A stretch of DNA of 64,000 nucleotides from an uncultured Solirubrobacterales bacterium (GTDB lineage Bacteria; Actinomycetota; Thermoleophilia; Solirubrobacterales; 70-9), in the NCBI GenBank assembly GCA_963777915.1, contig CAVZSH010000007.1, forward strand, positions 83,433-147,432. Direction: 5' to 3'. Made by a program: the position numbers and the translations under genes. Positions within the stretch are counted from its first letter, which is position 1. Each line of letters starts with the position of its first letter. Positions 34,176 to 55,624 of the stretch are shown here, piece by piece. Under the pieces are notes generated by a model. The model was given only the letters and a program-made list of their open reading frames with translations. It searched no databases and was not told the origin of the DNA.

Positions 34176-35620
34176 ATGGCGATACCCCAGTCGCAGCAAA
34201 GCCCCACCGCCGAGCCGCAGTCAGAGCGGAGCGTTACGCCCGTGCTCGCTGACGAGTCGGCAGGGGAGCTGGAGGGTCTCGTTCAGCTCAAAGAGCTCGA
34301 GCGCACCCCGCAGGAACGCAAGCAGCTCTACGTCGCGCTTCATCTCAAGCTGGCGTTGGTGATCGCGATCGCGATCGCCTGGGCCGGCTTCTCGCTCTGG
34401 CTCTCCCTCCCCTGGATTAATACCCTGGGCCAGTCGATCACGATGCCCCTCGCGATCGCGGTGATCTTCGGCATCGCGATCATCCCCGGCTACCTCAACG
34501 CCAACCTGATCGCCTCGCTGCTGATCGACCGCCCGCCGCCGCTTCGCTTCGACCTCGACTTTCCGGCACTCACCGTCGTGATCGCCTGCTTTAACGAGGA
34601 GGAGACGATCGAGGAGACGCTCGACTACGTCGTCAAACAGGAGTACCCCGGCGAGCTGAGGATCCTCGTGGCCGACGACGGCTCTAAAGACCGCACAGCC
34701 GAGCTGGCTCGCAAGCGCCGAGCAGACGACGCTCGGATCACTGTCCTCACCGTTCCCCACGGAGGTAAGGCAAACACGCTTACCGCGGCCCTGAAGCACG
34801 TACGGACCCCGCTGATGGCGACTGTTGATGCCGACACGCTGTTGATGCCCGACTCCCTGCGGCGCATCGTCGCTCGGCTGTTGATCTCCCCGCCCGACAC
34901 GGTGGCGGTAGCCGGGCGCGGTCTTCGTGCGCAATTCGCGCAGCAACTTCATCACCCGCGCCCAGGAGTGGGACTACTTCCTCGGCATCGCCTCGGTGAA
35001 GCGCCAGCAGGGCCTTTTCCAGGGGACGATGGTCGCCCAGGGGGCCTTCAGCGTCTACCGGGCCGCCGCGCTCAATGAGGTCGGCGGCTGGCCGGACAGG
35101 ATCGGCGAGGACATCGTCCTCACCTGGGCGATGATGCGCGAGGGCGGTCGGGTCGGCTATGAGCGCACCGCGATCGCCTTTACCGGAGCGCCCGAAGACG
35201 CCAAGGCATTCGCCCGACAGCGACGCCGCTGGGCACGGGGGATGATCGAGGGGCTGCGCGAGCACGGCGGGGCGCTTTTGGCCGAGGGCCGCTCGAACAT
35301 CCACGCCGTCCTCGTCAACTTCATCTTCCCCTATATCGATCTCGTCTACTCGATCGCCTTCCCGATCGGGATCGTGCTGGCGCTGTTCGGCAATTTCGCG
35401 ATCGTCGGGCCGATGACCCTGGCGGTCCTGCCGCTCAACTTGGTGCTGGCGGGGATCATGTTCCACTTCAGCCGGCGCTCCTTTCGAGGAGGTCGGCCTG
35501 AAGGTCCGCCGCAACCGGTTCGGCTACCTCGGCTACCTGCTGACCTATCAGCTCTTCATGTCGCCGGTCTCGGTCGCCGGGTACGTGCAGGAGCTGTTCG
35601 GCGCGGCGCGCCGCTGGTAG
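34176..35620 (+). pseudogene. processive family-2 glycosyltransferase (PgaC/IcaA/cellulose-synthase-like) with two frameshifts (about 34917 and about 35484)
   Basis: Contains LTVVIACFNEEE, DDGSKD, VDADT, EDIVLTW and QRRRWARG (QxxRW). The protein is spread over three frames (track ORFs 34158.. and 34927.., plus the tail FEEVGLKVRRNRFGYLGYLLTYQLFMSPVSVAGYVQELFGAARRW* ending at 35620). Confidence 0.8.
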
Positions 35621-35795
35621 CTCCTGTCGTCGTGCTTCTTCGAGATGGCCATCCAACCTCATGCATTGGGTCAATCCCTCCCCCCAGAAGGATGCGTCTT
35701 CTGCCTGGGCCTCGCCTGACCGTCAAAACCATTCCGCGGGTGCGGCGGGCCGACCCAGGTTTCCAACGATCAGCCCTCCCAGGGGGCCTCGACGC

Positions 35796-36302
35796 CTACT
35801 CCTCGGCGTCGGCCGCGAGGCGCTCGCTCTCCTCGGAGAGCACGCGCAGGCCCTGCATAAAGTTGGCGCGGGTGCGAGGCGAAAGGCGCTCGAGCGCGCG
35901 CCGCATCGGCTCCACCACCTGGCTCACCCAGACTCCCACCGATTCCCGGTACTCCTCGTGGATCGTGACGATCGTGCGGCGGCGGTCGGCCTCATCCTCG
36001 GTCCGCGTGATCAGGCCGGCCCGGCTCAGCTCTCCCACCAGGAGGCTGGTGGTGGCCACGCTCAGGCCCACCCGCTCGGCGAGCTCGCTGACGCTGAGCC
36101 CGCCATCGAGCGCAACGGCAAAGAGGACCGGCGCATGGCGAGGGCCGAGCTGCTCGCGTTCGGCCGCCTCCCTCAGCGCTGGAGACGGCGTGCCGCTGCG
36201 ACGCTTGGCAGAGTGGATTACCTCGGCCAGTAGGGTGGCGAGTTCGAAAGCGCTCTCATCGAGCCCTTGCTCCTGCTTCGGCTTGGTCGCGATCGTCGCC
36301 AC
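35796..36302 (-). CDS. MarR-family transcriptional regulator
   Basis: Winged-helix core LFAVALDGGLSVSELAERVGLSVATTSLLVGELSRAGLITRTEDEADRRR. It is divergent from the MMPL gene. Confidence 0.8.
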   Translation of the reverse strand: MATIATKPKQEQGLDESAFELATLLAEVIHSAKRRSGTPSPALREAAEREQLGPRHAPVLFAVALDGGLSVSELAERVGLSVATTSLLVGELSRAGLITRTEDEADRRRTIVTIHEEYRESVGVWVSQVVEPMRRALERLSPRTRANFMQGLRVLSEESERLAADAEE

Positions 36303-36336
36303 GTCTGTGCTAAAAATCCGTCGGGAATCAAAGTAT

Positions 36337-36358
36337 TTGAAATCTAAAAGATTTGCAA
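36337..36358. promoter_or_regulatory. AT-rich near-palindrome in the MarR/MMPL divergent promoter region (candidate MarR operator)
   Basis: TTGAAATCT-aaa-AGATTTgCAA. AAATCT occurs three times within 36340-36362, and this is the only AT-rich stretch nearby. Confidence 0.4.
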
Positions 36359-36386
36359 ATCTAGTCTATCGGGCGGTGAAAGCCAC

Positions 36387-38611
36387 ATGAATACCCAGAT
36401 AACTCCGCCAAAGGCCGGCGCCCTGGCCCGTATGGCGGGCTGGACGATCGCCCACCGCCGCCTCACCCTCCTCTCCTGGGTCGGGATCCTGATCGCTGTC
36501 TCGATCGGCGCCGGCGCGGTCGGCACCCGCCAGGCCACCAACTTCACACTGCCGGGGACCGACACGCAGCGGGCCATCGATCTGCTGCAGCGCGAATTCC
36601 CCTCACAGGCGGGCGACCATGACCAGATAGTGATGCGCGCCAGTGGAGGACGAATCGATACCCCGGCGCTGCGCGCCCAGATCTCGCCGATGCTTCGCGA
36701 AGTCGCAAAGGCGCCCCACGTCAGCGGTGTAGTCAGCCCCTTCAGCCCGCCGGGCTCAAACGAGGTCTCAAAGGGCGGCCGGATCGCCTTTGCGACGGTC
36801 GACTTCGACCAGCGCGCCAACGAACTCCCCAAATCTGCGATCGAAAGGGTCATCTCGCTCGCCGAGGCGGCCCGCTCGAGCCAGCTTCAGGTCGAGCTGG
36901 GCGGCCAGGCGATCGAACAGGCCCAGCAGCCCTCCTTCGGTCTGACCACCGCGATCGGTGTGCTCGCGGCGATCGTCGTGCTGCTGATCAGCTTCGGCTC
37001 GCTGGTGGCGATGGGCCTGCCGATTATCACCGCGCTACTCGGCCTGGGGACGGGCGTCGGGCTGATCGCCTTCGGCTCCCAGCTGGTCGACATGCCCAAC
37101 TTCGCCACCGAGCTGGCGGTAATGATCGGCCTTGGAGTCGGCATCGACTACTCGCTGTTCATCCTCACCCGCTTTCGGGAGAACCACCGCCGTGGCGACG
37201 ACGTCGACGCAGCGGTGATCGCGGCGATGGACACCGCTGGGCGGGCGGTGGTCTTCGCCGGCTGCACGGTGATCATCGCCCTGATGGGCATGTTCGCGCT
37301 CGGTGTCAGCTTTCTCTACGGCGTCGCAATTGCCGCCTCCCTTGCGGTGCTGCTGACCCTGCTGGCAGCGCTTACCGTCTTACCGGCGCTCCTCTCGCGC
37401 TTCGGCGAGCGAATCGCGGGCCCCGGTCGCCGCCGCGAGGGGCCGCGCAAGTGTCGGCTGCCAGCCCTCCTACGGCCGGCGGTGAGGCCGCCTCCTCGGG
37501 CTTCTGGCCTCGCTGGGCGCTGTTCATCCAGCGCCATCCCTGGCCGGCGGCGATCACCGGGGCCGCGATCATGCTTGTGTTGATGGCGCCGGTGCTCTCG
37601 ATCCGCCTCGCGAGCAGCGACGCCGGCAACGATCCGACCAGCCAGACCACGCGCCGGGCCTTTGACCTGCTCGCCGAAGGCTTCGGCAAGGGCTTCAACG
37701 GTCCTCTGCAGTTGGTGGCGAGCCTGCCGCGGCCAGTCGATCGGCCCGCCCTTGATCGCATCTCGGCAAGGGTGGGTTCCGACCCCGATATCGCCTCCGT
37801 CTCACCACCGCAACTGACTCCGAACGGGCGCACCGCCGTACTGATCGCCTACCCCCGCTCGGCACCTCAGGACCAGGCGACCACCGAACTCGTCAACCGC
37901 CTCCGCGGCACCGGCCTGCCACAGGTCGCGGCGAGCACCGGCACCTCGATCCTGGTCGGCGGCGTGACCGCCGGTCAGATCGACTTCAGCCACGTGCTCA
38001 GCGCCAAGCTGCCGTTGTTCATCGCGATCGTCGTGCTGCTCTCGGCGCTGCTCCTGATGGTCGTCTTCCGCTCGTTGCTGATCCCCCTGCAGGCAGCGCT
38101 GATGAACCTTCTCTCGATCGGCGCCTCGCTGGGCGTCGTCGTGGCGATCTTCCAGCACGGTTGGCTGGGCGGTATTTTCGGGGTCGAACCGGGCCCGATA
38201 GACGCCTTCATCCCGGTGATGCTATTTGCGATCGTCTTCGGCCTCTCGATGGACTACGAGGTGTTCCTGATCTCTCGCGTTCACGAGGAGTGGAAGCACA
38301 GCCATGATCCCTCGCTGGCCGTGGTGCGTGGCCTGGGCTCGACCGGCCGGGTGATCACCGCCGCCGCGACGATCATGGTCTGCGTCTTTCTCTCCTTCGT
38401 CTTGATCGACGAGCGGGTCGTGAAACTGTTCGGCCTCAGCCTCGCCAGCGCCGTCTTCCTCGACGCCTTTGTCGTGCGCTGCCTGCTGGTGCCGGCGACC
38501 CTGGAGCTGATGGGCCGGGCGAGCTGGATATTCCCCTCATGGCTGGAGCGGCGGCTGCCGCACCTTGCGATCGAGCCACCCGAGCCGCAGGTCGAGGCGC
38601 AGGAGGCATAG
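36387..38611 (+). pseudogene. MMPL-family (RND superfamily) transporter with a frameshift near 37430-37445
   Basis: Two halves sit in different frames (track ORFs 36387..37583 and 37451..38611). Each half has a periplasmic domain plus a 5-6 TM bundle, and the junction LLSRFGERIAG / GFWPRWALFIQRHPW is typical of MMPL proteins. Confidence 0.8.
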
Positions 38612-39836: not shown

Positions 39837-40001
39837 GTGGCCATTTCTCGCCCGATCCAGTCAACCATCGATCATCGCGGCAACCGGCGCCTAATCGAGT
39901 TGGACGCCATGGGCCGTGCCATCATTGTTGTCATCGCCGATGACGATCCCGACTACGTCATCACAACGTTCCTAGATGGCTTAGATGCGAGCCGACTATG
40001 A
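39837..40001 (+). CDS. short ORF, possibly a DUF4258-like toxin remnant
   Basis: VAISRPIQSTIDHRGNRRLIELDAMGRAIIVVIADDDPDYVITTFL. The C-terminal ...vvv...viTtf pattern and a 17-nt overlap with the next ORF resemble DUF4258/DUF2283 pairs. The match is weak. Confidence 0.25.
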   Translation: MAISRPIQSTIDHRGNRRLIELDAMGRAIIVVIADDDPDYVITTFLDGLDASRL

Positions 40002-40274
40002 CAGCAAGGCTGAAGCGATCTCGATCGTGCTGATCTCCGGGACGGCGCTGAGCACGCCGATGAGGCGCACCCGCGAGCGATTGTTGCCCTCCGCGACGGC
40101 CGACCGCTAGAGCTGCAGCTCCTCTACCCTGATCTCGGCAGCGAGGAGCCGCTGCGAGTGGTGGCCGAGCGCTACGGTCTCGACCGCAAGGTGCTTCTCG
40201 CCGCCGCGCAGGCTGCCTTGGCCGCACCGGACCGCACGGTGACCGTTGAGGTAGGAGTGCGGGCGGTCGCATAA
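39985..40274 (+). pseudogene. DUF2283-like small protein with a frameshift near 40040-40055
   Basis: MRADYDSKAEAISIVLIS is in one frame. DEAHPRAIVALRDGRPLELQLLYPDLGSEEPLRVVAERYGLD...VRAVA* is in another. Confidence 0.35.
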
Positions 40275-40569
40275 GCACGGCTTGCAACCCAGCCGCCTCA
40301 GAGGCCTCTGCTGGCGCTCTGCTCTGCCGGAGGGCGCTACCGGGCCTTCGCGCCGCCGCCCCCGCAATCCGTGCAGCCAGCCTTCGCAGCAGTTCCCGGG
40401 TCCCAGTAGGGCAACCCGCCGGTGTAATCCAGTCCGTATCACCGCGCCGCACACTAGCATCAGGCTTAATTTCAGATGCCCGTCGAAAGACAACAAAAAG
40501 AGGCGTACCTGGTCGGCAACAACCCGTGCAATCCTCAGCGAAGCAATCCTGAGGGACGAATCCCCACTC

Positions 40570-41157
40570 ATGGAACCGGATGGCCTGGATTCTGGTCTCT
40601 TTGCGGGCGAAGACGATCTCCGGCTGCTCCGCGGGCTCCCTGACGAATGCATAGATCTGGTCTACCTTGACCCGCCAGTTTTTTCCAGCTGGGTCCATGA
40701 GGGCAGTTGGCAAGATCGAGCTGAACTGGGACCGGTCGAGGATCGCTGGCAGGGTGGGGTCCGGAACTACCTCGACTGGATCACCGCTCCGCTGGACGAC
40801 CTGCATCGCATCCTCACACCCACTGGTGCCCTTTTCCTCGTCTGCGATCAAGCAGTGGGTCTTTACATTAGGCTCATACTCGACGAACTGTTTAGTCGCC
40901 AGGACCCGCAAAATCGCATGGTCTGGTGGAAGGCCGATTCCGGACCCGAGCGCCACCACGTTTTCTACTACCGCAGATCGGACTTTACCGCCGCTCGCCA
41001 CGGTCGCTATTACACCGTAATCCACCGCGAGGGCAAAGCCGATTCGTCTCTGGTGGCATTCAGCTTTGTGCAGGGACGGCGGAGGCGGCAGCGCTCCAAC
41101 CACCTGCCTGGTTGCAATCGACCAGCCATCCGTTCGAGCCAGTCTGCCCAGCCCTAA
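40570..41157 (+). pseudogene. truncated N4/N6 DNA methyltransferase (beta-class) fragment
   Basis: Contains LRLLRGLPDECIDLVYLDPPVFSS (DPPY-type motif IV reading DPPV), DRWQGGVRNYLDWITAPLDDLHRILTPTGALFLVCD and NRMVWWK. The C-terminal AdoMet-binding FxGxG region is absent, because the ORF ends 36 nt before the next gene. Confidence 0.55.
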
Positions 41158-41192
41158 AGGAGCAAGCGCCGCTCGCCGATGCCTGGTGCTAT

Positions 41193-43124
41193 ATGAGCTC
41201 CGAGCGATCCCGATCGGCAATGAATCGGATAGGAGTACCAGCGCCGCCGTCCTTTGCGGTGACGCAGCACGAATGGGAGCTCCATCGCCTCGGCGAAGAG
41301 TTAAAGGGGCGCGCCGAGGACGTCCTGGAGCTGACGCTTGAGCGGACCACCGGTCCGGAGCACGAGGTCGACTCTTTGGTCCAGGACAGCTTCGAACGGA
41401 TCAGTCGCAACTCAACGATCGCTGTGGCTCGCTGGATCGCGGGGGAGAGCATGGAGGTGGCGATCGAGGCTGGACGAGAAACCTGGGAGATTTTTGGCGA
41501 GCTGGCAGTGCACCGGGCGGCCTCCCTTAACGAGGTGACCTGGCGCTGCTTTTGGTGGCGTAACGCGATGGCCGAGGTGATCAAGGAGAGTGCCTCCAAG
41601 CTGGAAATCCCGTCCGAAGCGCTGGTCGACGCACTCAACATCTTGCAGCTGAGTCTAGAGTTCAGCCTACTGCGGATGTGTGAGTGCTTTGAGAGCGAGC
41701 GCCAGCGCACCGACGAAAAACTCGCCCGGCGTGAGGACGAGCTCTCCTTCCTGGCGACACACGACCCGTTGACCGGTCTTCCCAACCGCACCTTGATCCT
41801 CGACCGGGTTGAGCAAATCCTCGCTCGCTCACGTCGCAAGCAATCCCCGGTGGCGGCGCTGTTCATCGACCTCGACAACTTCAAGGATATAAACGACACC
41901 CTCGGTCATGGCGTCGGAGATGAACTGCTGGAGGCCGTCGCGGCTCGGCTTAACGGCGTAATCCGCGACGCCGATGCGCTTGGACGTCTAGGTGGCGATG
42001 AGTTCGTCGTGATCTCAGAAGAGATCTCCCTGGCAGCCGGCCCTGAGCTCGTCGCTGAGCGACTGCTTGAAGCGCTCGAGCAGCCGTTCAAGCTCGGAGA
42101 GGGCAGAGAGACCCGCGTGACCGTAAGGGCGAGTATCGGGATCGCGATCGGCGAGCGAACCTCGGCCGAGGAGCTCCTGCGCCAAGCCGACATCGCGATG
42201 TACCGGGCAAAGTGGGACGGAAAGCATCGCTACGTCGTGTTCGAGACCGGAATGCAGGACTTCATCCAAAACCGCATGGAACTCGAGATGGACCTGCTCG
42301 AAGCTCTGGAGAAGGACGAGTTCTTTCTCGCCTATCAGCCGACGATTGACCTAAGTGATATGAGTCCCACCGGTGTGGAGGCCCTGATCCGCTGGGATCA
42401 TCCCAAGCGGGGGGTGATTCAACCAGAATGCTTCATCCCGCTGCTCGAGGAGTCAGGCCTGATCACGGAGATCGGCAAGTGGGTTCTGAACCAAGCCTGC
42501 GGTCAGTGTGCCGAATGGAGGAAGGCCGGATATCCGATCGGCATTGCAGTCAACGTCTCCGCACGCCAGCTCGACAGCGATCAGATCACGACCGACATCA
42601 AAGAGGCGCTCGATGAAAGCGGTCTGGAGCCCACAGAGCTGACCATCGAGGTTACCGAGACAGAGCTGATGCGAAATTTCGAGGAGACCTCGCGACGCCT
42701 CGGTGCGGTCAAGGCGCTTGGCGTGCGGATAGCGATCGATGATTTCGGGACGGGATATTCATCATTAGCCCACCTGCAGCGGTTCCCTGTGGATGCATTG
42801 AAGATCGACCAGTCCTTCATCTCAGGGTTGAGCCGCTATCAGGAGGGAGAGACTTTAATCCGCACCCTGGTGCAGTTAGGAAAGTCCCTTTCGATCCAGA
42901 CCATCGCCGAGGGTATCGAGCAACATCGCGAGCTCTCCCTGCTCAAGGACGAGGACTGCGACAACGGGCAAGGTTTCCTCTTCGCCCGGCCTCTTGACGT
43001 AGCCGCCACCGAGGCGTTCCTGCGGGACTGGCTCGACCGCTCGAATCCTACCTTCGCCGAAGCGCCAAAGGACACAAGTCAAGCAGTCCCTACCACGGTC
43101 GACGCCTCTCCAGGGAAGATCTGA
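41193..43124 (+). CDS. GGDEF-EAL protein (diguanylate cyclase/phosphodiesterase) with an uncharacterised helical N-terminal domain
   Basis: Contains HDPLTGLPNR, DLDNFKDINDTLGHGVGD, I-site RDAD followed by RLGGDEFVV, then EALIRW, DDFGTGYSSL and QGFLFARP. Confidence 0.9.
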   Translation: MSSERSRSAMNRIGVPAPPSFAVTQHEWELHRLGEELKGRAEDVLELTLERTTGPEHEVDSLVQDSFERISRNSTIAVARWIAGESMEVAIEAGRETWEIFGELAVHRAASLNEVTWRCFWWRNAMAEVIKESASKLEIPSEALVDALNILQLSLEFSLLRMCECFESERQRTDEKLARREDELSFLATHDPLTGLPNRTLILDRVEQILARSRRKQSPVAALFIDLDNFKDINDTLGHGVGDELLEAVAARLNGVIRDADALGRLGGDEFVVISEEISLAAGPELVAERLLEALEQPFKLGEGRETRVTVRASIGIAIGERTSAEELLRQADIAMYRAKWDGKHRYVVFETGMQDFIQNRMELEMDLLEALEKDEFFLAYQPTIDLSDMSPTGVEALIRWDHPKRGVIQPECFIPLLEESGLITEIGKWVLNQACGQCAEWRKAGYPIGIAVNVSARQLDSDQITTDIKEALDESGLEPTELTIEVTETELMRNFEETSRRLGAVKALGVRIAIDDFGTGYSSLAHLQRFPVDALKIDQSFISGLSRYQEGETLIRTLVQLGKSLSIQTIAEGIEQHRELSLLKDEDCDNGQGFLFARPLDVAATEAFLRDWLDRSNPTFAEAPKDTSQAVPTTVDASPGKI

Positions 43125-43271
43125 TCTGGCACACCCCGTAACGGCATGTTTCACCTTCGAGATCGACTGTCGTTGCAGTGGGATGGGCCTTCGCATGACA
43201 CGTATGCTCAACACCCAGAGTAGGTTCCCGGAGTCTTTCTGAGGCGTTTATCGCGGGTCGAGGCTAGTAGC

Positions 43272-43430
43272 TACCTGTCCTGCCCACGGACGTTGTGAAC
43301 GGGCCCGGCCTCGTTGTAGTCGCGGAGCCAATGGGGCAGGGCCAGTTGTGATAACGGTGTGAGGTGTAGGTCACCTGGTAGGCTCACTCAAGCAGCATCG
43401 CGCGGATGACCCGCACGCCTTGTTTGTTGA
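43272..43430 (-). mobile_element. short scar of an rve-type (IS3/IS481-like) integrase
   Basis: The reverse strand reads LNKQGVRVIRAMLLE* and, in another frame, ..LAPRLRDYNEAGPVHNVRGQ. The latter resembles the DYNxxRPHxxLG tail of DDE integrases. No intact ORF is present. Confidence 0.2.
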
Positions 43431-43647
43431 GTGATCCGGAGCAGGTCTCACTTTAAGTGGCAAGGCTGGGGCATGATTGCCGAGAAGGAGATGATTCCGC
43501 AGGCCTGGCACCTTTCGAGGACTCTAGCCAGGTGTTCGAGGCTGGCAGTGTCACCTGCAACCGCCACCTTGGCGGAGGAAGCCGGCACTCTGACACCTGA
43601 GCAGCACCAGACGAGTTAGCACTGTGCACAGCTTACGGTTCGGCGGG

Positions 43648-44325
43648 CTATGGGCTTGCGACCTGCTCGTCTTTTAGGACGCCTTGCAGCTCAGCAAGCT
43701 TCTCGGTTGCTGAGCTCGCGAGCTGAGCGGCTACCGGAACTTTGGATAGGCGTTCCTTCAGCGCATCGATCTTCTCGCCTGCCGCTTTAAGCTCGCTTTC
43801 CAACTGCTGCTCGCGCTCGACGCTCCGCTCCCGCTCGCGCTCAAACTCCTCACGCTGGTCGGCTAGCGTTGTCGCCGCCTGCTCTGCGCGGTCATCGACA
43901 TCGTGTAGCTCGCCGCGTGCCGCTTTAAGCTCGCTTTCCAACTGCTGCTCGCGCTCGACGCTCCGCTCCCGCTCGCGCTCAAACTCCTCACGCTGGTCGG
44001 CTAGCGTTGTCGCCGCCTGCTCTGCGCGGTCATCGACATCGTGTAGCTCGCCGCGTGCCGCTTTAAGCTCGCTTTCCAACTGCTGCTCGCGCTCGACGCT
44101 CCGCTCCCGCTCGCGCTCAAACTCCTCACGCTGGTCGGCTAGCGTTGTCGCCGCCTGCTCTGCGCGGTCATCGACATCGTGTAGCTCGCCGATCCGACGC
44201 TCCACCGTCTCGACTAGGCGGCCGACATTACGCATTTGCTCGTGCATGGCCGAGAGCGCCGTCGAGAGCTCTGCGAGCTCGCCCTCTTCGTCATTGCTGT
44301 TGGTTGGTCCCGTGCCTTCAGGCAT
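43648..44325 (-). CDS. acidic coiled-coil protein with three identical 46-aa repeats
   Basis: The unit ELHDVDDRAEQAATTLADQREEFERERERSVEREQQLESELKAARG occurs three times. ATG 44325 was chosen; an alternative GTG at 44379 would overlap the upstream gene. Confidence 0.7.
   Translation of the reverse strand: MPEGTGPTNSNDEEGELAELSTALSAMHEQMRNVGRLVETVERRIGELHDVDDRAEQAATTLADQREEFERERERSVEREQQLESELKAARGELHDVDDRAEQAATTLADQREEFERERERSVEREQQLESELKAARGELHDVDDRAEQAATTLADQREEFERERERSVEREQQLESELKAAGEKIDALKERLSKVPVAAQLASSATEKLAELQGVLKDEQVASP
43780..44191. repeat. three perfect tandem copies of a 138-bp unit (in frame, inside the coiled-coil gene)
   Basis: GCCGCTTTAAGCTCG... begins at 43781, 43919 and 44057, a period of exactly 138 bp. 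I saw no mismatch between copies. Confidence 0.95.
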
Positions 44326-44347
44326 GGGATTCGGCTTATCCACTGCC

Positions 44348-45097
44348 TCATCGAGGTTGCCCGCGGGCAACCTCGCCACCCCGTGAATCGTGCCCTCCCT
44401 GCGTTGCTGCCTCAGAGGGCGGTGGCTCAGCGATTTGCTCGGGGGCTGGCTCAGGAGGAGCCGCCAACTCCGGCGGCGGCTGTGGATGAAGTGTAGTCGT
44501 AGATCGAGGTTCCGGCTCTCCGTGCGGCTCGGTGGTCGTGGCGGGCAGCTCCGGTAATTCGGTCACCGTCGGACGCTCCTGCACGGGGAGAGTCTCGATC
44601 AGGCTCTGAATCTGCGTCCCAGTCGCGATCAGGGGTCGGACCTCGTTCCTGGTCATCACCTCGATGTCGTTGATGCCCAGCATGTTGAACGGGTCCTCGA
44701 TTGCGAGAAGTAGAGCTCCGTCGGAGGCGAAGGCGATCGGCAAGGCGGCATATCGGATTGCGGTGGACTTATCGATCAGGCTGGTGACCTCCAGATCGAC
44801 TTCGAACTGGTCGAGATCGACGTGGTTAAGGCAGTTTCGCTCGGCCACTGCGAGCGAGAGCTGCCGCTCGTCGATTACGCCATTTTCAAGCAGATAGCGC
44901 TCGGGAGTCTTCGCAGACTGGCGGGTTGCGTTGACGGCCTCCTCTACGGCGCCTTGATCGGCGAAGCCGAGCTCGGCGATTACGTCGGTCAGGAAGGCGC
45001 CCTGGCGATCGGGGTTGGATGGGGGGGTGATCCCCATCGCGCTCGGAGCGAGCCCTGAGACGCTCGGGCCGGGGTTGGTGGTGGCGGTCTCGCTCAT
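44348..45097 (-). CDS. stand-alone T2SSE_N / MshEN-like domain protein with Pro-rich C-terminal tail
   Basis: FLTDVIAELGFADQGAVEEAVNATRQSAKTPERYLLENGVIDERQLSLAVAERNCLNHVDL...ALPIAF...LLLAIEDPFN parallels the N-terminus of the local pilB (SELGYATPDSVREAIEVARTAGRSPEALLLEQGAVNSDQLSRAIAERYGLDHLD). There is no ATPase domain. Its ATG overlaps the upstream stop (ATGA). Confidence 0.7.
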   Translation of the reverse strand: MSETATTNPGPSVSGLAPSAMGITPPSNPDRQGAFLTDVIAELGFADQGAVEEAVNATRQSAKTPERYLLENGVIDERQLSLAVAERNCLNHVDLDQFEVDLEVTSLIDKSTAIRYAALPIAFASDGALLLAIEDPFNMLGINDIEVMTRNEVRPLIATGTQIQSLIETLPVQERPTVTELPELPATTTEPHGEPEPRSTTTLHPQPPPELAAPPEPAPEQIAEPPPSEAATQGGHDSRGGEVARGQPR

Positions 45098-46095
45098 CCG
45101 CTCACCTGTTGGTGGACGGCGTCCGACTTGCGACGCTCACCCGAGGCTCGGGCAGTCGCTTCTGCAAGCATGAATGCCTCTTCGGGAGACGGCGTTCCGG
45201 CCAACGCTTGAACACCTTCGGATAGTTCGATTCGCGGGCCGTGTCCCTCCGTCACCCGCCGCAGCGCGGCCTGGACGCGGTCGACGAAATCCGACGCATT
45301 CTCTACTCGACAGCCGACTAGGATTGCCGCAACTGTTGCCTCTCCGATCCGACCGAGGCGATCCGTCGCCCTGGCATTTGTTTCCAACACCTCCGCGACG
45401 ATCTTCATCGCCAGCTTGCTTCGCGGATCGCCATTTGGGGCCCGATCCGGCCCCGCGCCGATCCGGAAGGCCACGAGTACGGACTCGACGGTTCCCCGGC
45501 TCGTCAACGCCCACTCGTGGTCCAGCAGGTTGAGAAAACTGTCGCGGCTATGGAGGCCGGTGTCTACATCAATCTTCGCGCCCGCCGCCGAGCTTCTTCG
45601 AAGCCGTCGGAGCTCAGCTCGCTGCTCAACGCTCTCCCATTCGTGACTCAGCAGCCGAGCGGCGATCCCGAGCAATGCCCTGTGGGCGCTGTCGTAGACG
45701 TCGGCGCGTGTGTCAAGGACGGCGAGGATCCCGACAATCCTGCCGTCGCTGAACTCGAGGGGCATCCCAAGGTACGCAACTACACCCAGCGATTTGAGGT
45801 AATCGCAATCTAGCTCGGCGGGCGACGACAGATCCGGGCCGTCTCCCGAGGCCGGGCCAGCGCCGTTTGCACGTGTCCTCAGCGGCAAGACAGTGTCCTT
45901 GTCGATTCCGTTTACGCCAGGGCCCCGAACCTCGACAACCCGACAGCCCTGCCCGTCGGGTTCGAGCCGACCCAGGACGATCTCGCCGGGGATGACGTCG
46001 GCTATTGCGCTCAGCACCGGCTTTAGAGCATCCGAAAAGCTGCGGAAACGAGGATGCCCTAGGCGGATCAGCGCCTGGGCCTCAATGCCGTCCAT
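45094..46095 (-). CDS. GAF domain + degenerate GGDEF domain protein (active site lost, RxxD I-site kept)
   Basis: The GAF tail reads YLGMPLEFSDGRIVGILAVLD. The GGDEF-like region reads DVDTGLHSRDSF ... RATDRLGRIGEATVAAIL, which aligns position by position with the RxxD-xxx-R-x-GG(D/E)EF consensus, so the I-site is present and GGDEF is replaced by IGEAT. ATG 46095 was chosen within track ORF 45094..46263. Confidence 0.7.
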   Translation of the reverse strand: MDGIEAQALIRLGHPRFRSFSDALKPVLSAIADVIPGEIVLGRLEPDGQGCRVVEVRGPGVNGIDKDTVLPLRTRANGAGPASGDGPDLSSPAELDCDYLKSLGVVAYLGMPLEFSDGRIVGILAVLDTRADVYDSAHRALLGIAARLLSHEWESVEQRAELRRLRRSSAAGAKIDVDTGLHSRDSFLNLLDHEWALTSRGTVESVLVAFRIGAGPDRAPNGDPRSKLAMKIVAEVLETNARATDRLGRIGEATVAAILVGCRVENASDFVDRVQAALRRVTEGHGPRIELSEGVQALAGTPSPEEAFMLAEATARASGERRKSDAVHQQVSG

Positions 46096-46169
46096 ACGAT
46101 TCCTATCGGATCGAGATCGAAATATCTGAGTCTGGGCTGAATGCTTCCGAGTTGGAGGGCGAAAAAGAA

Positions 46170-46183
46170 GGCCATTTATGGCC
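46170..46183. promoter_or_regulatory. perfect palindrome GGCCAT-TT-ATGGCC about 75 nt upstream of the GAF-GGDEF operon start
   Basis: 6+2+6 inverted repeat seen directly in the sequence. Its function is unknown. Confidence 0.25.
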
Positions 46184-46311
46184 ATACTCAGAGGCAGTGG
46201 AGCGGTTTCCAAGTTTCGTTCGCGGCCGACATTGGGAACCTCAAGTCGGTCCCGCTTGGGCACCGGTACCGATTCGCTTGCCTTTCTCCGAGCCCGGTTT
46301 GACTGCGAACT

Positions 46312-46330
46312 GCGCTGCTGCTCGCAGCGC
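46312..46330 (-). terminator. hairpin downstream of yihY
   Basis: GCGCTGC-tgctc-GCAGCGC (7-bp stem) lies about 25 nt past the yihY stop. Confidence 0.3.
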
Positions 46331-46354
46331 CAGCGCTGGCGTCGCCTTGCTCCC

Positions 46355-47257
46355 TCACCGGATCCTCTCGCCGGCGCAATCTGCGCAGCCGCCGTTTTGC
46401 TTTGCCTCGCCGTAGGGCATCTCGCCGGTGTCTTGCAACTCGAAGCGTAGCGAGTTGATCACCGCGCCGGAAAGCAGCGCCAAGCTCAGTAGATAGAACC
46501 AGAGCAGGGCGATGAGGGCGAAGCCAAGAGTGGAACCGAGGTGGGAGAGGCTTGAGATGTTGTTCAGGTAGATCGGGAAGAGCCAGTTGGCGAGGCCGGT
46601 CGTGACGGTGACGAAGAGCGCTCCCGGCCAGACTGCGCGCCACGGCATATGACCTTTGGGCACTGCCCAGAAGATCACGGAGCAGACCCAAAAGCTGATC
46701 AGAAGGGCCGCGCCGAGCAGTAGCGCCGTGTCGATCGCCCTGATGTGGGAGAGCCCGAAGGGGAGTCGGTCGGTGCCGGAGGCGATGGCGCTCTCAAGTG
46801 CCGGCAGGAAGATGCTGGCGGCGATGAAGAGGATGACGACTGCGAGCATCACGAAGGAAAAGCGCTTTTGCTCAACCCAGCCGCGGCACTCGACGTGGTA
46901 AATGCGACAAAAGGCGGTGTCCATCGCCCCCCAGAAAGAGGCGCCGATCCACAGCGAGCCGAAAAAGGCGGCGATTCCGATCGTGGTCGAGTTATCCACG
47001 ATCCGGTTGAGCACGTCGGTCAGAGTGCCCTGGTCGACGTTCGGGAAGAGGCGCTTGAGGTCGCCCAGGACGCTGCTCTCGACGCCGCCGATCTTCAGTA
47101 CCTGCCCAAAGACGAAGAGGACCAGCAGGGCGAAGGGGAAGATCGCCAGCATCAGGTTGTAGGCGACCATTGCGGAGAGCCCGGTGACGTTCTCGCGGTA
47201 GGCGCGTTGCCAGAAGGCGCGGAGCCAGGGGCGGGGGTGGCGCATCGATTTGGGCAT
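46355..47257 (-). CDS. YihY/BrkB (virulence factor BrkB / RNase BN-like) family membrane protein
   Basis: Contains ENVTGLSAMVAYNLMLAIFPF, followed by six TM segments and a C-terminal tail. Confidence 0.8.
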   Translation of the reverse strand: MPKSMRHPRPWLRAFWQRAYRENVTGLSAMVAYNLMLAIFPFALLVLFVFGQVLKIGGVESSVLGDLKRLFPNVDQGTLTDVLNRIVDNSTTIGIAAFFGSLWIGASFWGAMDTAFCRIYHVECRGWVEQKRFSFVMLAVVILFIAASIFLPALESAIASGTDRLPFGLSHIRAIDTALLLGAALLISFWVCSVIFWAVPKGHMPWRAVWPGALFVTVTTGLANWLFPIYLNNISSLSHLGSTLGFALIALLWFYLLSLALLSGAVINSLRFELQDTGEMPYGEAKQNGGCADCAGERIR

Positions 47258-47452
47258 TAGGTTGACTTCACAAACTGAAGCGACTACCATACGAACAGAC
47301 GTTTGAGCGCCCAGTGATAGGCGATCGGCGCAGACTTACCTTCGCGGACCAGCTCTCCGGTCCGCTTTTTGTCGCCTTCCGCGACTTTTGGTCTGCGGTC
47401 GCATTTCAGTGGCAGGACTAAACCATCTAGCGCAAGGGAACGAGTTGACAGG

Positions 47453-48559
47453 ATGCTGGTAGCAGAGCTTCAAGAGATGGAGGAGGTCAAAGGCCTCATC
47501 ACGCGCGGGCAGCAGCTCGGCGTGCTCACCTTCGGTGACGTCGCCTCGGCGGTCTCCGAGGTCGACTTGGACGAGTCCGACGTCGAGGACCTGTACGGGC
47601 ACCTCGAGAAGTCGGGGATCGAGCTCGTCGAGGACATGGATCCGGCCCAGAAAGCCGCAGCCGACGCAATGCCCGTAGACACCGGCAAAAAAGGCCGTCG
47701 ACGCCCCAAACAGGCGCTCGACCTCAAACCTGACATGACGACCGATTCCTTGCAGTTGTTCCTCAAGGACATAGGCAAGGTGCGGCTTCTTACCGCCCAG
47801 GAGGAGGTCGAACTGGCGAAGCGGATCGAGCGTGGCGACCTCGACGCGAAGCAGAAAATGGTCGAGTCCAACCTACGCCTGGTCGTCTCGATTGCCAAGA
47901 ACTATCGAAATCAGGGCCTTCCCTTCCTCGACCTGATTCAGGAGGGGACGTTGGGACTGGTCCGCGCGGCGGAGAAGTTCGACTACCGCAAGGGATTTAA
48001 GTTCTCGACCTATGCAACCTGGTGGATCCGCCAGGCGATCGCCCGCGCGCTCGCCGATAAGGCAAGGACTATCCGCATCCCGGTCCACGTGGTCGAGAAG
48101 CTGAATAAGATCGGCCGCGCCGAGCGAAAGCTGGTCACCGAGCTGGGCCGGGAGCCCACCCCGGAGGAGATCGCCGAGGTGACCGGGATCGATCCCGAGG
48201 AGGTCGACTCGATCAAGCGCTCCGCGCAGGCCCCGGTTTCCCTCGAGAAGCCGGTCGGCGATGAGGAGGAGTCCGAGTTCGGCCAGTTCATCGCCGATGA
48301 GAAGGCTGAGTCCCCGTTTGATCGGGCGGCCGACCTGCTCACCAAAGAGGCGCTGAAGGAAGCACTGGAGAACCTCTCCTACCGCGAGCGTCGCGTGCTG
48401 GAGTTGCGCTACGGCCTCGGTGGCGAGCACCCGCGCACCCTGGACGAGGTCGGACGGACCTTCAATGTGACCCGCGAGCGGATCCGCCAGATCGAGAACC
48501 AGAGCCTGAAGAAGCTGCAGAGCCTGGGCGAGGCCCAGAAGCTGCGTGAGATCGCTTAA
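47453..48559 (+). CDS. rpoD: principal RNA polymerase sigma factor (SigA/RpoD)
   Basis: Acidic region 1.1, region 2 ([56 protein letters not shown]), region 3 and region 4.2 ([20 protein letters not shown]). Confidence 0.9.
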
Positions 48560-48604: not shown

Positions 48605-49720
48605 ATGTTCGACATTGACTCAGCTTTGAGCACGCTCGTCGAGCGGCAGGGGTCCGACCTCCACGTCAAAGTCTCCTCGCCGCCGATCCTTCGCGTCCAC
48701 GGTCAGCTCTCCTACCTTGAGGGCCACGCGCCGCTCACCGCCGAAGACACGGAGAAGGCATTCCACGACATCGCCGAGGTGCGCTCCCTGACCGAGTTCG
48801 AGGAGGACGGGGAGGCCGATTATTCATACGCGATCCCCGGCGTCGCTCGCTTTCGCGTCAATACCTTCAAACAGCGTGGTTCGATCTCGATCGTCTGCCG
48901 CGCCATCCCCTTCGAGATTCGCTCGATCGACCAGCTCGGCCTACCTGAGGGGTCCGCTCGCTGGCCAAGGAACCGCGGGGGATCATTCTCGTAACCGGCA
49001 CCACCGGTTCGGGCAAGTCGACGACGCTGGCTGCGATGATCGACCACGTCAATCGACCCGGGCCCGGCACATCGTGACGCTCGAGGATCCGATTGAGTAC
49101 CTGCACCCCGACAAACTCTCGATCATCAACCAGCGCGAGGTAGGGGCTGACACCAAGAGCTTTGGTCGGGCGATGAGGCGGGTCCTGCGCCAGGACCCCG
49201 ATGTGATCTTAATCGGGGAGATGCGAGACGAGGAGACGGTGCGTACGGCGCTCTCGGCCGCGGAGACCGGCCACCTCGTCCTCTCAACGGTCCACACCCT
49301 CGATGCGACCGAGACGATCAACCGGATCATCGACTTCTTCCCGCCACACCTCCAACAGCAGGCGAGGGTGATGCTCTCCGCGACGCTTAAGGGGGCTATC
49401 GCCCAGCGTCTGGTTCCCGACCTTAGCGGCACGGCAGAGTCGCCGCGGCCGAGGTGATGGTAGTTACAGGGCGCATCCAGGACCTGATCCTCAACCCGGA
49501 TGAAACCGGCAAGATCACTGAGGTCATCGCCGAGGGGGAGTACTACGGGATGCGGACCTTCGACCAGTCGCTGCTCGGCTATGTGATGGAGGGTCGCATC
49601 TCCGAGCAGGTGGCGTTGGAGTACGCGTCCAGCCCCCACGATTTCAGGCTGATGCTCGCGGCTGGAGGGCAGCGGGCGAGCGGTATCGAGCAGCTCGACG
49701 CGGAGCCGGTGCCCCAGTGA
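48605..49720 (+). pseudogene. pilT: type IV pilus retraction ATPase PilT, copy 1, interrupted by 3 single-nt frameshifts (about 48950, 49053 and 49430)
   Basis: Contains [88 protein letters not shown] and EVMVVTGRIQDLI. The pieces sit in frames 2, 1, 0 and 2. Confidence 0.85.
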
Positions 49721-50374
49721 GGGAGAAGCTGAACGACAATCCGATCGCCCAGGTCGCCCTGGTAGGTGTTCTCGTAGTTGCGGCTGCGTTTCTACTGCTC
49801 AAAGGGGGTGGCGAAAGCAGCGAAGGATCCAAGGCGACGACTTCGACCAGGCCGAAGCGAGCTCCGGCGCAGGGTCCGCGGGCGAAGATTCTTCCAGCGC
49901 ATCCGCTGGGGGAGAAGCGTCCAGTGTCTCCAGCGGCGAAGAAGGCTCGAGCGCCACGGGTGGTGTAGCGGGCAGCGTAAGCCAAGCCGCTTCCCTACGA
50001 TCCCAGTCTCGGTGCCGGCGCCGCCGTACCGCGGTTTCGGGCGCCTATGCAGCAGATAAGACCATTGTCCTGCTCATCGTTCATCGCGGTGGAATCGAAG
50101 ATCGGATCGTCACCAGGGCGGTAGATCGGCTGAAAAATGACTCCGGGCTCGCCGTCTTTGTCATCCCGGCCAAGCAGATCGCCCGCTATGCGGCGATCAC
50201 GGTTGGAGTCGAAGTCGAGCAGGTGCCGGCGCTGGTTGTGATGCGTCCACGCCGCCTAGCGCCGGTACTCCCCAAGCCTCGAGTGACCTGGCTTCCCAGA
50301 CCCCCCAAAGCGTCGTGCAGGCGGTTCACGGCGCTACCTACAAGGGCCCCGAAATCGCCTATCACCCCAATTGA
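49717..50374 (+). pseudogene. membrane-anchored protein with acidic Ser/Gly linker and alpha/beta C-terminal domain (hypothetical); at least 2 frameshifts
   Basis: The GTG overlaps the pilT stop (GTGA). The pieces are: an N-terminal TM segment (IAQVALVGVLVVAAAFLLL); DDFDQAEASSGAGSAGEDSSSASAGGEASSVSSGEEGSS; KTIVLLIVHRGGIEDRIVTRAVDRLKNDSGLAVFVIPAKQIARYAAITVGVEVEQVPALVVM; and the tail SQTPQSVVQAVHGATYKGPEIAYHPN* in a third frame. Confidence 0.45.
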
Positions 50375-50383
50375 ACTGGTCAC

Positions 50384-52208
<1,825 letters not shown>

Positions 52209-52222
<14 letters not shown>

Positions 52223-53359
52223 CTTTGACTTCGCCGAGGTGGCTGCGCCGCATGGTGGAGGCGCGGGCCTCCGACGTCCACCTCACCGCTGGGTTTCCCG
52301 CCGGCGATCCGCGACCGGGGCAGGATCATCCCCGATGGAGGGCTTTCCGGTGCTCGGTGGGGCAGCAGACCCGGGAAGTCGTTTACGGCATCCTCAACGA
52401 TGACCAGCGCAAGCGCTTCGAGAACGATAAAGCAGCTCGATTTCGCCTACGCGATCCCCAGCGTTGCCCGTTTCCGCGTCAACTGCTTCTTTCAGCGTTG
52501 GTTCGGTCAGCGCCGCTTTTCGCCTGGTTCCGCAGGAGATCCCTGGCTCTCGACACGCTCGGGGTGCCGCAGGTGCTGCGCGAACTGACCCAAAAGCCGC
52601 GCGGCTTTGTTTTGGTGACCGGCCCCACCGGCAGGGGTAAGTCGACGACGCTAGCGGCGATGATCGACGTGATCAACGCGAGCGCGAGGATCACATCCTG
52701 ACGCTCGAGGACCCGATCGAGTTCCTGCACCTCTCACAAACGCGCCCTCGTCAACCAGCGAGAGGTCGGCTCCGACGCGCCGGACTTCGCACTAGGACTT
52801 CGGGGCTGCGCTGCGCCAGGACCCGGACGTGATCCTGGTCGGAGAGATGCGCGACCTGGAGACCATATCCCCGGCGCTGACCGCCGCCGAGACCGGACAC
52901 CTGTGTTTTCGCGACCCTGCACACCAGTCGAGCGCCCAGACGGTCGACCGGTCATTGACGTCTTTCCCATCTCAGCAGCAAGGTCAGGTGCGCACACAGC
53001 TCTCGATCGCCCTGCAGGGGATCGTCACCCAGCAACTCTCGCCGACCGCCGACGGGAGGGGACGGGTCGTCGCCTGTGAGGTACTGATCCCGACCCCGGC
53101 GTTTTCGAACCTGATCCGCGAGGGCAAGACCCACCAGATCTATGCCGCGGTGCAGACTTCCGGTGCGGTTGGGATGCAGACAATGGATGCTGACTTGGCT
53201 CGCCTGGTGCGCTCGGGGAAGATCACCCGCGCACTTGCCGAGCAGCGTGCTTCGGTGCCTGAGGAGCTGAAGCTGCATGCTGGTTGGCGGCGCGGCGCAG
53301 ATGCCGGGCGGCGGTCTGGCGGGTCAGAGCCTGGCGCCTCCGGCGCCCGTCTACACTAA
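52209..53359 (+). pseudogene. pilT: PilT-type retraction ATPase, copy 2, about 14 frame changes
   Basis: Contains [132 protein letters not shown] and IIDVFP, followed by an intact C-terminal third (track ORF 52829..53359). Confidence 0.8.
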
Positions 53360-53373
53360 GGAAGCCTAGGACG

Positions 53374-54619
53374 ATGGCCGGCGCCACGACGTTTGCCTTC
53401 CGCGCCATGGACCTCGCCGGGGTCGCCTCGTCTGGTGAGCTGGAGGCTGAATCAAAGGCCCAGGTCTCCGAGCAGATCCGCCAGCGTGGCCTGATCGTGC
53501 TCGACGTTTCCGAGAAGCATGAGCCTTTTAAGGTCGAGGACCTTTTCAAGCGCTGGCAGGCGGTCGACATGCGCGAGCTGGCAGTATTCTCGCGCCAATT
53601 CGCGACCCTTGTCGCCTCCGGGATGCCAATGCTTCGCACCCTGCAAACGCTCGAAGAGCAGACTCAGGATGAAGAGATCCGCGACGCGGTTGCCAGCTTG
53701 CGGGGGGATGTCGCGGCGGGCAGCTCACTCGAGCAGGCGATGGAGCGGCACCCGAAGGTCTTCGATCGCCTGTTCCGGGCAATGGTGCGCTCGGGTGAGC
53801 AGTCGGGCCGCCTTGAGGAGGCGCTCGACCGGATCGCCTACCAGGTGGAGAAGGCCGATTCCCTGCGCCGGCAGATTAAATCGGCTCTGATGTATCCGGC
53901 ACTTGTCTTCACCTTCGCGGTAATAGTGCTGGTTGCGATAGTCGTCATCGTCATCCCCGTCTTCGTCAAGATCTTCCAAGAACTCGCCGCCGAAAACCCA
54001 GAAGAAGCTACCGGGTTGCCGGCGCCCACCCAGCTTTGCGTCGACGTCTCCAACGCGCTGACCGGCTACTGGTACCTGATCATCCCAGGTCTGGCGCTCG
54101 CCATCTTCGGCTTTATCAAATGGAAGAAGACCGATGGCGGCCATGCACAGTGGGACCGCCTCAAGCTGAAGATTCCATTCAAAATCGGCGACGTGATCCA
54201 AAAAGTCTCGCTGGCCCGCTGGTCACGCACCTTTGCGGGCTCGGTCTCCTCAGGGGTGCCGATGCTGCAGTCGATCAAATTGACCGGACAGACGGCCGGC
54301 AACATCGTGGTCGAGCAGGCGATGGAAGACGTCTACGCCTCGGTCAAGCGTGGCGGCTCGCTTGCCGGACCAATTGAGAAAAACCCGATCTTTCCCTCGA
54401 TGGTTGGTCACATGATCTCGGTGGGCGAGGAATCTGGCCAGCTGAGAGCACATGCTGAGCAAGATCGCCGACTTCTATGAAGCCGAGGTCGATGCCAAGA
54501 TCAAGGCTCTGACCGCTTTGATCGAGCCGCTGATGATCGTCTTCGTAGGCGGCATCGTCGGGTTCATCGTCATCTCGATGTACTTGCCGCTGTTTAGTAT
54601 CTACGAACACATCCGTTAA
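53374..54619 (+). pseudogene. pilC: type IV pilus platform protein PilC (GspF family) with one frameshift near 54445
   Basis: Two T2SSF repeats (FSRQFATLVASGMPML...GEQSGRLEE and WSRTFAGSVSSGVPML...GEESGQL). The last 55 aa (MLSKIADFYEAEVDAKIKALTALIEPLMIVFVGGIVGFIVISMYLPLFSIYEHIR*) are in the next frame. Confidence 0.85.
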
Positions 54620-54885: not shown

Positions 54886-54973
54886 CCTCGGTTCAAAAGG
54901 CAAACCCGTCGTCAGGCGGGGGCGCACAGCTCTCGGGGGCTCCTAGCTAGGAGCCGCCGGGCTACCACCGGGG
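54886..54973 (+). promoter_or_regulatory. candidate c-di-GMP-I (GEMM-I-like) riboswitch aptamer in the pilA1 leader
   Basis: AAAAGGCAAACC-CGTC-GTCA-GGCG-GGGGCGCACAGC has the same segment lengths as the Vc2 core GGCAAACC-AUUC-GAAA-GAGU-GGGACGCAAAGC, with a compensated 4-bp helix. A second 13-bp hairpin lies at 54932-54961. The closing helix pairs CCTCGGT (54886-92) with ACCGGGG (54967-73). This was a hand alignment only, and there are two mismatches in the most conserved block. Confidence 0.35.
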
Positions 54974-55041
54974 TCAGAGGACACCACGTGGCCATACGCG
55001 ACGGGGCTCTGGCGCAAACGATAGGTCCATAGGAGGTACCT

Positions 55042-55479: not shown

Positions 55480-55552
55480 AAGCTGGGCCCACGGTTAATC
55501 AGCTCTACTGAGCATCGTTTGGCCCTAACAGGTCATGCGTGATCGCATCTTT

Positions 55553-55579: not shown

Positions 55580-55624
55580 ATGCGTTCGTCCAGATTTCAT
55601 AAGTCGCCTCAAAAGCTGGCGAAG

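Follow-up and report, generated by a model that had tools for sequence, protein, structure and literature searches.

In this study we describe a two-gene module in a stretch of 64,000 nucleotides (nt) from an uncultured Solirubrobacterales bacterium (GenBank assembly GCA_963777915.1, contig CAVZSH010000007.1, positions 83,433 to 147,432), which as a whole we call the window. Both genes lie on the minus strand. Gene 1 encodes a GAF domain followed by a degenerate GGDEF domain, and gene 2 encodes a protein with an N-terminal domain like that of the pilus motor PilB (N1D, of the MshEN/GSPII or T2SSE_N type) on a coiled coil. The pair is a conserved and so far uncharacterised module, confined to uncultured Thermoleophilia, and probably an effector of cyclic diguanosine monophosphate (c-di-GMP). 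Our preferred reading, to which we give a probability of roughly one half, is that of a Thermoleophilia-specific coupled pair in which the gene 1 product is a c-di-GMP receptor controlling a motorless PilB-N1D coiled-coil protein, which would tune the pilus motor. We found no published description of a degenerate GGDEF protein paired with an MshEN coiled-coil protein in the literature searched, and NCBIfam holds no curated family for either gene, all matches being far below the cut-offs. Soil Thermoleophilia are abundant and mostly uncultured. To our knowledge, little has been learnt of c-di-GMP effectors in Actinomycetota beyond Streptomyces and mycobacteria, and essentially nothing in Thermoleophilia, for which the module offers a concrete, testable effector candidate.

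The conservation of the pair was assessed in 82 loci (numbered with the prefix L), of which 80 came from a scan of one genome per species and two from an exact-protein look-up. The 80 scanned loci belong to Solirubrobacterales, Thermoleophilaceae or unclassified Actinomycetota metagenome-assembled genomes (MAGs) only; the closest relative found, L003, is a Solirubrobacterales MAG whose gene 1 product is 78% identical to that of the window. The gene 1 homologue is followed directly downstream by an MshEN-domain gene in 81 of the 82 loci; the lone exception (L068) runs into a contig edge. The two genes share a start/stop overlap of four nucleotides (ATGA, GTGA or TTGA) in 63 of the 76 loci that we used for overlap and tail counts. 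The ATGA overlap of the window, already noted in a preliminary description of this DNA, can be read directly from the sequence and suggests that the two genes are translationally coupled. Pairwise distances among gene 1 proteins correlate closely with those among gene 2 N-terminal domains (r = 0.92). Four Thermoleophilaceae genomes even carry two paralogous pairs that are 43–47% identical (L047/L065, L042/L067, L049/L070 and L038/L074), and in all of them the gene 1 types match the gene 2 types one-to-one. Hence the pair has been duplicated and kept as a unit, and such strict partner matching suggests specific cognate pairing. A third conserved gene was not found in the survey: the commonest other neighbours are housekeeping genes such as miaB, rny, recX and dapF, none of them shared by more than 33 loci, so that the neighbourhood conservation asked about earlier for a triad holds for the pair and not for three genes. 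In L006, L062, L075, L079 and L082 genes 1 and 2 form one continuous open reading frame (ORF), which might be a natural fusion or an indel error at the overlap.

What had been described as a three-gene operon is very probably a two-gene unit; the ORF coordinates given at the time were correct, the gene count was not. The 5' ORF of gene 2 (ORF 2) closes at a premature stop produced by a frameshift, and the supposed third gene (ORF 3) was called at 43648–44325 on the minus strand with 225 amino acids (aa). Each of the 66 database homologues of ORF 2 is a longer protein (265–430 aa) encoded by a single ORF: an MshEN domain and a Pro-rich linker are followed by a helical region that corresponds to ORF 3 and closes in the conserved C-terminal motif of the family, '...ATEKLAELQ.VL'. 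In L003 a single 552-aa protein aligns to the window first in frame -1 (45097–44495) and then in frame -2 (44340–43654). Genes 2 and 3 are therefore one frameshifted gene, and the 22-nt gap at 44326–44347 that had been taken as intergenic is an artefact, because the frameshift lies inside one gene. One gene appears to be the ancestral and normal state, whether the split is an error or decay. The DNA alignment to L003 ends at 44496 and the Pro-rich linker is too divergent to place the frameshift exactly; a 49-nt insertion after 'HD', spotted by eye, was dropped without support from any alignment. Gene 1 is intact and equal in length to its homologues. A promoter scan of 43200–46500 gave no sigma-70-like sites, and the sole minus-strand terminator-like hairpin in that range lies at 46183–46170, after brkB. 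For scans of long-read MAGs the locus is a caution that neighbouring 'small genes' may be the halves of one frameshifted gene.

The domain assignments themselves were borne out. Hidden Markov model searches had been proposed as a check on the GAF, GGDEF and T2SSE_N domains, and Pfam supported all three. In gene 1 the GAF domain scores 30.0 bits (cut-off 22.4) and the GGDEF domain (PF00990) 27.7 bits (cut-off 23.8, model positions 58–144), and a profile of the gene 1 family matched 34 GGDEF chains in the PDB (best E = 2e-13). The AlphaFold2 (AF2) model (predicted local distance difference test score, pLDDT, 81.6) consists of a GAF-like domain at residues 1–130, a helix of 34 residues at 136–169 and a GGDEF fold. 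Over its whole length it matches GAF-GGDEF and phytochrome-linked cyclases in Foldseek, and isolated GGDEF domains superpose on it with template modelling (TM) scores of 0.72–0.79 and a root-mean-square deviation (rmsd) of about 3 Å. Gene 1 thus belongs to the GGDEF fold.

Both the signature and the metal-binding Asp required of an active diguanylate cyclase are lost from gene 1. This emerges from an alignment of 177 unique family members with the active-looking cyclase encoded nearby, a GGDEF-EAL protein. Over the 177 members the signature position varies widely (G/A/D/S, then E/P/D, then M/D/A/T, and so on), and the metal-binding Asp position reads R/H/S/Q/E. The loss of the catalytic motif had been recognised before, where it was read as IGEAT; aligned to the GGDEF of the local cyclase, the signature position is GEATV. 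The inhibitory site (I-site) shows the opposite pattern, with R242, D245 and R273 each invariant in all 177 members. In the local alignment RATD and GEATV of gene 1 stand against RDAD-ALGRL-GGDEF of the cyclase, as the earlier placement of RATD at the RxxD site had it. R273 pairs with the Arg of 'ERIR' in PDB entry 3IGN and of AER in the local cyclase, and the I-site residues as a whole align with RQSD and CER of 3IGN. The earlier picture of a dead GGDEF domain with its I-site kept is thus upheld at the sequence level, and gene 1 would qualify as an I-site receptor of the PelD/PopA class, which is recognised by RxxD and a secondary Arg about 28–32 residues past the Asp. With this triad frozen while the catalytic site drifts, gene 1 is most simply a c-di-GMP receptor, and we consider it likely that it binds c-di-GMP.

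Several known systems resemble gene 1 in part. Binding of c-di-GMP by PelD needs RxxD and a downstream Arg (R367/D370/R402 in Pseudomonas aeruginosa, R363/D366/R395 in Bacillus cereus; PMC7112168). PelD has the same order of a GAF and then a dead GGDEF domain and an equivalent triad, with an Asp-to-Arg spacing of 32 in P. aeruginosa and 29 in B. cereus against 28 in gene 1. However, PelD is membrane-anchored and belongs to a pel polysaccharide operon, whereas gene 1 begins directly with its GAF domain, has a 34-residue linker helix resembling that of dimeric cyclases and is partnered with a PilB-N1D coiled-coil protein. PelD (4DMZ) ranks only 41st among the Foldseek matches of gene 1, behind GAF-GGDEF cyclases such as Dcsbis (4ZMU). 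We rejected PelD family membership on this rank and on the lack of a transmembrane region and of a pel context; the window neighbours of the pair are brkB, sigma-70 and the GGDEF-EAL gene, and no Pel gene turned up in the neighbourhood that was scanned. In PopA a GGDEF domain that is catalytically dead but has kept its I-site reportedly serves as a c-di-GMP-dependent switch of localisation or partner binding. SgmT is reported to bind c-di-GMP at a GGDEF I-site and to relocalise (PMC3509222). Gene 1 shares with both the logic of a GGDEF I-site as a c-di-GMP switch, but their inputs are REC or histidine kinase domains rather than GAF, and neither is encoded with an N1D-type partner.

The partner, gene 2, is a member of the MshEN/GSPII (T2SSE_N) fold. 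ORF 2 scores 51.4 bits with the Pfam model (PF05157), and the family profile matches the GSPII domains of Thermus PilF, several PilB N-termini and MshE. We used the intact homologue P0007 for structure prediction (the window's own product is P0001). Its AF2 model has a pLDDT of 85.8 overall and above 90 over residues 10–170, and shows an ordered N-terminal extension, a four-helix bundle with an alpha/beta subdomain, a disordered linker at about 175–224 and then a single helix of 90 residues. The bundle and the subdomain are also those of the MshE N-terminus and of PilF GSPII. Against MshE (5HTL) the model reaches a TM score of 0.78 with an rmsd of 2.9 Å, and for its N-terminal domain the TM scores against MshE, PilF GSPII-B and the N1D of Xanthomonas citri PilB range from 0.69 to 0.78.

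The proposed paralogy with the PilB N-terminus was confirmed: gene 2 is 37% identical to residues 38–186 of L003 PilB over 149 aa (E = 9e-27). PilB proteins of the lineage also share the N-terminal extension of gene 2, 'G(L/I)TPP...GF.xD..VELG(F/Y)A', which in the 5' part of the window gene reads GITPPSNPDRQG. The N-terminal domain of gene 2 is thus a full paralogue of the lineage's own PilB N1D, set on a coiled coil instead of a motor. A T2SSE ATPase domain (PF00437) was found neither in gene 2 of the window nor in eight homologues of 406–1398 aa, while genuine PilB controls (L003, L067) score 434–455 bits; an identity as a PilB/GspE secretion ATPase was rejected for lack of this domain. The preliminary description was therefore right about the missing ATPase and the Pro-rich tail of ORF 2 (24% Pro) and wrong in limiting the gene to a T2SSE_N domain, since it continues into the coiled coil.

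That coiled coil is the former gene 3, whose acidity (61 D+E versus 33 K+R) and three repeat units of 46 aa stand as described, though as part of gene 2 and not as a separate gene. Its Pfam matches are sub-threshold only and mostly to coiled-coil families, and the NCBIfam matches of the tail (SMC, Rad50, HmpF) are due to composition alone. In L003 a homologous unit is repeated five times in the tail (about 11839–12510), and tails of near-identical repeats, with a unit and copy number that differ between lineages, are also found in L006, L013, L025 and L035, with periods of about 45–170 aa outside the window and L003. A single 47-aa unit separates the homologues P0002 and P0003, and the gene 2 protein ranges from 300 to 1398 aa across the family. 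This suggests that the tail may change its length quickly by tandem duplication; collapse or expansion of repeats during assembly is also possible.

As to c-di-GMP, some GSPII domains bind it with nanomolar affinity (PMC5013675, PMC12002112). The binding motif of MshEN domains has been defined as two tandem stretches of 24 residues, RLGxx(L/V/I)(L/V/I)xxG(L/V/I)(L/V/I)xxxxLxxxLxxQ, with a 5-residue spacer (PMC5013675). In gene 2 the first motif reads F-L-(S/T/A/D)...(A/T) and the second T-P-E...R, versus R-L-G...Q; in the alignment to 5HTL L36 pairs with L10, so that the invariant F35 falls at the position of Arg9. In place of the motif Arg, Gly and Gln gene 2 offers F/(S,T)/(A,T) and T/E/R, and unlike MshE and PilF it has no ATPase domain. 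Among 78 gene 2 sequences a relaxed form of the published pattern, which PilF GSPII-B as positive control matches, recovered one half-site in 2 and both half-sites in none. In Thermus PilF, GSPII-B and GSPII-C bind c-di-GMP and GSPII-A does not, and GSPII-A regained measurable binding only after Ser39, which stands at the motif Arg position, had been altered together with H33Q and R62Q (PMC12002112). Gene 2 deviates from the motif more than this non-binding domain. It would accordingly not count as a c-di-GMP receptor of the MshEN type, and with the motifs missing the earlier proposal of the MshEN domain as a second c-di-GMP sensor finds no support. The lineage PilB proteins of L003, L012, L035 and L067 likewise lack the motif; hence any c-di-GMP input to the motor would need a separate receptor.

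The link to pili comes from genomic context, scored as a pilus motor gene within 10 kilobases (kb) of the pair. Such genes are present in 14 of the 82 loci, in at least 6 of 27 clusters (70% identity), and in several arrangements. They are divergent from the pair across brkB and sigma-70 in the window, L003–L007 and L025; in L012 a co-directional pilT follows 54 base pairs (bp) downstream and is succeeded by pilB, pilT and pilC; in L035 a co-directional pilB match starts 300 bp downstream; in L013 and L014 the pilus genes are convergent with the pair; and four Thermoleophilaceae loci have a PilB-like gene on its own at a distance of 6–8 kb. By chance we would expect linkage in less than 1% of loci; this rough estimate takes the pilus cluster to span about 10 kb and the genome to measure a few megabases. 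With linkage above this estimate the pilus association is real, though far from universal, and a pilus-related output of the pair is plausible at somewhat less than even odds. The GGDEF-EAL gene noted earlier does look active, with both domains full-length, and its orthologue adjoins the pair in L003, L005–L007 and L025 and, in another arrangement, in L012. Its product may supply or remove c-di-GMP locally.

In our preferred reading c-di-GMP would be bound by gene 1 alone, at R242, D245 and R273. The gene 1 protein, which probably dimerises by the linker helix with its conserved SHEWES...ELRRLR motif, would then bind and control the gene 2 protein, whose N1D might dock where the N1D of PilB docks or onto PilB itself, while its coiled coil would give dimerisation and reach. 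The gene 2 protein would thereby serve as a tether or decoy that adjusts the engagement of the type IV pilus motor to the c-di-GMP level. PilM and the platform are the presumed contacts of the N1D of PilB, and in other bacteria PilZ and FimX bind to N1D (PMC11656802). In the FimX-PilZ-PilB system a degenerate c-di-GMP-binding protein is likewise coupled to an N1D/MshEN-type domain, that of the extension motor (PMC11656802), and the P0007 model matches the X. citri PilB-N1D from the PilZ complex (7LKM/7LKO) with a TM score of about 0.7. The likeness of the pair to this system lies in a degenerate c-di-GMP-type protein coupled to an N1D. It differs in that FimX senses c-di-GMP by an EAL domain, which gene 1 does not have, in that the N1D sits on a separate coiled-coil protein without ATPase, and in that no gene of the operon was found to encode a PilZ protein. 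We rejected a FimX-type regulator because Pfam finds only GAF and GGDEF in gene 1. It might even be possible, though we hold it to be unlikely, that the pair represents a new class of pilus motor regulator, with an N1D on a repeat-length 'ruler' that competes with or tethers PilB, gated by a dedicated soluble GAF-degenerate GGDEF I-site receptor in place of the MshEN or FimX input that the PilB of this lineage lacks. If the tether or decoy holds true, c-di-GMP would have a third route to the pilus motor beside MshEN binding and FimX/PilZ, and N1D domains could function apart from the ATPase.

Several observations weigh against this reading. In 68 of the 82 loci there is no pilus gene within 10 kb, a large Thermoleophilaceae group being placed among miaB, rny, recX and dapF, and the pilus-linked loci are phylogenetically clustered and so represent few independent events. 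The invariant Arg and Asp residues of gene 1 could persist for structural reasons. Furthermore, the pilus motor genes of the window and gene 2 are frameshifted, so the local copies are maybe non-functional or the assembly rich in errors. The earlier suggestion of pilus regulation thus gains from the recurrent linkage and loses by the unlinked loci and the broken local motor genes.

The last of these points leads to the possibility that the module and the pilus cluster of the window are decaying pseudogenes and that the split of gene 2 is a real mutation. We consider this possible but unlikely; it is compatible with the other readings. Compared with the intact references in L003 (pilB 608 aa, pilT 372, pilT2 383, pilC 414), the window pilT shifts frame three times, and pilB, pilT2, pilC and a 220-aa ORF are broken as well; over the stretch from 50.4 to 53.4 kb, some 40 indels of a single base are seen in the DNA alignment to L003. 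Sigma-70, brkB, gene 1 and the GGDEF-EAL gene are intact, and sigma-70 (47453–48556) has 99.7% protein identity to L003 and no indels. This concentration of indels in pilus genes argues for decay, as does a fragment of an IS110-type transposase in the cluster. However, many related MAGs stem from long-read assemblies (contig_N names), and there about 11 of the 76 gene 2 homologues run out of frame into an Arg-rich tail, as random indel errors would produce. Such errors are also indicated elsewhere in the window by a glycosyltransferase family 2 (GT2) gene, chitin- or cellulose-synthase-like, and an MMPL transporter gene, each split into overlapping ORFs by a likely frameshift (34158–35078 and 34927–36390; 36387–37583 and 37451–38611); an intact GT2 gene adjoins the pair in L012. 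The uneven spread of indels could be due to a local drop in coverage, to collapsed strains or to genuine decay.

A different function would follow if the pair were a c-di-GMP-controlled coiled-coil scaffold unrelated to pili, with a cytoskeletal, polar or envelope-organising role, in which the N1D had been reused for protein binding. The unlinked loci among housekeeping genes would fit this, as would the long SMC-, Rad50- or crescentin-like tails on proteins of up to 1398 aa and the fast evolution of tail length by tandem repeats. Yet the first 170 residues with their extension resemble PilB specifically, and adjacency to pilus genes recurs in several independent arrangements far above the rough chance estimate; we therefore regard a non-pilus scaffold as rather unlikely. 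It is improbable that gene 1 is not a c-di-GMP receptor at all, with a GAF domain sensing another ligand, a GGDEF domain for dimerisation or partner binding and structural Arg and Asp residues. Further invariant positions in gene 1 (D176, T179, E152-W153-E154 in the linker, R159 and R164) could be taken in this sense, but the invariant trio is the exact I-site triad in canonical spacing next to drifted catalytic residues, and an active-looking GGDEF-EAL enzyme adjoins the pair in two arrangements. Highly improbable is the original idea of a three-gene split sensor, in which the GGDEF I-site and a stand-alone MshEN domain both bind c-di-GMP beside a separate coiled-coil protein: the MshEN fold is present, binding GSPII domains exist and in-frame start codons are available to the downstream ORF (ATG at 44325, GTG at 44379), but every homologue has genes 2 and 3 as a single ORF, the motif residues of gene 2 are replaced, and PilF GSPII-A fails to bind despite fewer deviations.

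The coordinates of the module, of its sequence features and of the surrounding genes are collected in Table 1.

Table 1. Features of the two-gene module and its surroundings; positions refer to the window unless a surveyed locus is named.
Feature	Position	Strand	Remarks
Gene 1	45094..46095	-	333 aa; GAF ~1-130, long linker helix 136-169, degenerate GGDEF ~172-333
I-site R242-A-T-D245 (RxxD)	45361..45372	-	five residues before signature position; aligns with RDAD of local cyclase
Degenerate signature GEATV	45331..45345	-	at GG(D/E)EF position, aligned to GGDEF of local cyclase
R273, secondary I-site Arg	45277..45279	-	28 residues past D245
ATGA overlap	45094..45097	-	gene 1 stop / gene 2 start, read from sequence
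Gene 2, 5' part	44348..45097	-	frame -1, 249 aa; N-terminal extension, MshEN/GSPII ~35-172, Pro-rich linker
Frameshift interval	44340..44495	-	splits gene 2 within variable linker
Gene 2, 3' part (earlier 'gene 3')	43648..44340	-	frame -2, acidic coiled coil
Tandem repeat	43776..44191	-	138 bp x 3.0, 46-aa units, 0-1 mismatches (TRF and direct copy comparison)
GGDEF-EAL gene	41193..43124	+	Pfam GGDEF 152 bits, EAL 242 bits, full-length; canonical RDAD...GGDEF and EAL motifs
pilT, 220-aa ORF, pilB, pilT2, pilC	48605..54616	+	Pfam T2SSE/T2SSF fragments; all frameshifted
Remainder of pilus cluster	54900-62650		
Pilin	55042-55479	+	N-methylation motif
464-aa repeat protein	55671-57065		no Pfam match
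Prepilin peptidase	57110-57859		
IS110-family transposase fragment	58328-58978		
Pilin	59764-60366	-	N-methylation motif
PilO-like protein	60638-62647	-	
PilB with shared extension	L003:3977-5803		
PilB with shared extension	L012:14560-16479		
PilB with shared extension	L035:12391-14187		
PilB with shared extension	L067:1805-3637		

In the wider window we noted the transhydrogenase genes pntA and pntB (24395–27236) as well as egtB-like (28213–29418) and egtD-like (29460–30455) genes of ergothioneine synthesis, which fits an actinobacterial origin. A weak DNA-methylase fragment lies at 40282–41157. The G+C content is about 0.69–0.71 at 12–34 kb and drops to 0.60–0.64 at 40000–48000 and to 0.58 at 54–56 kb; this low-G+C stretch overlaps the broken genes and may be a variable or acquired segment.

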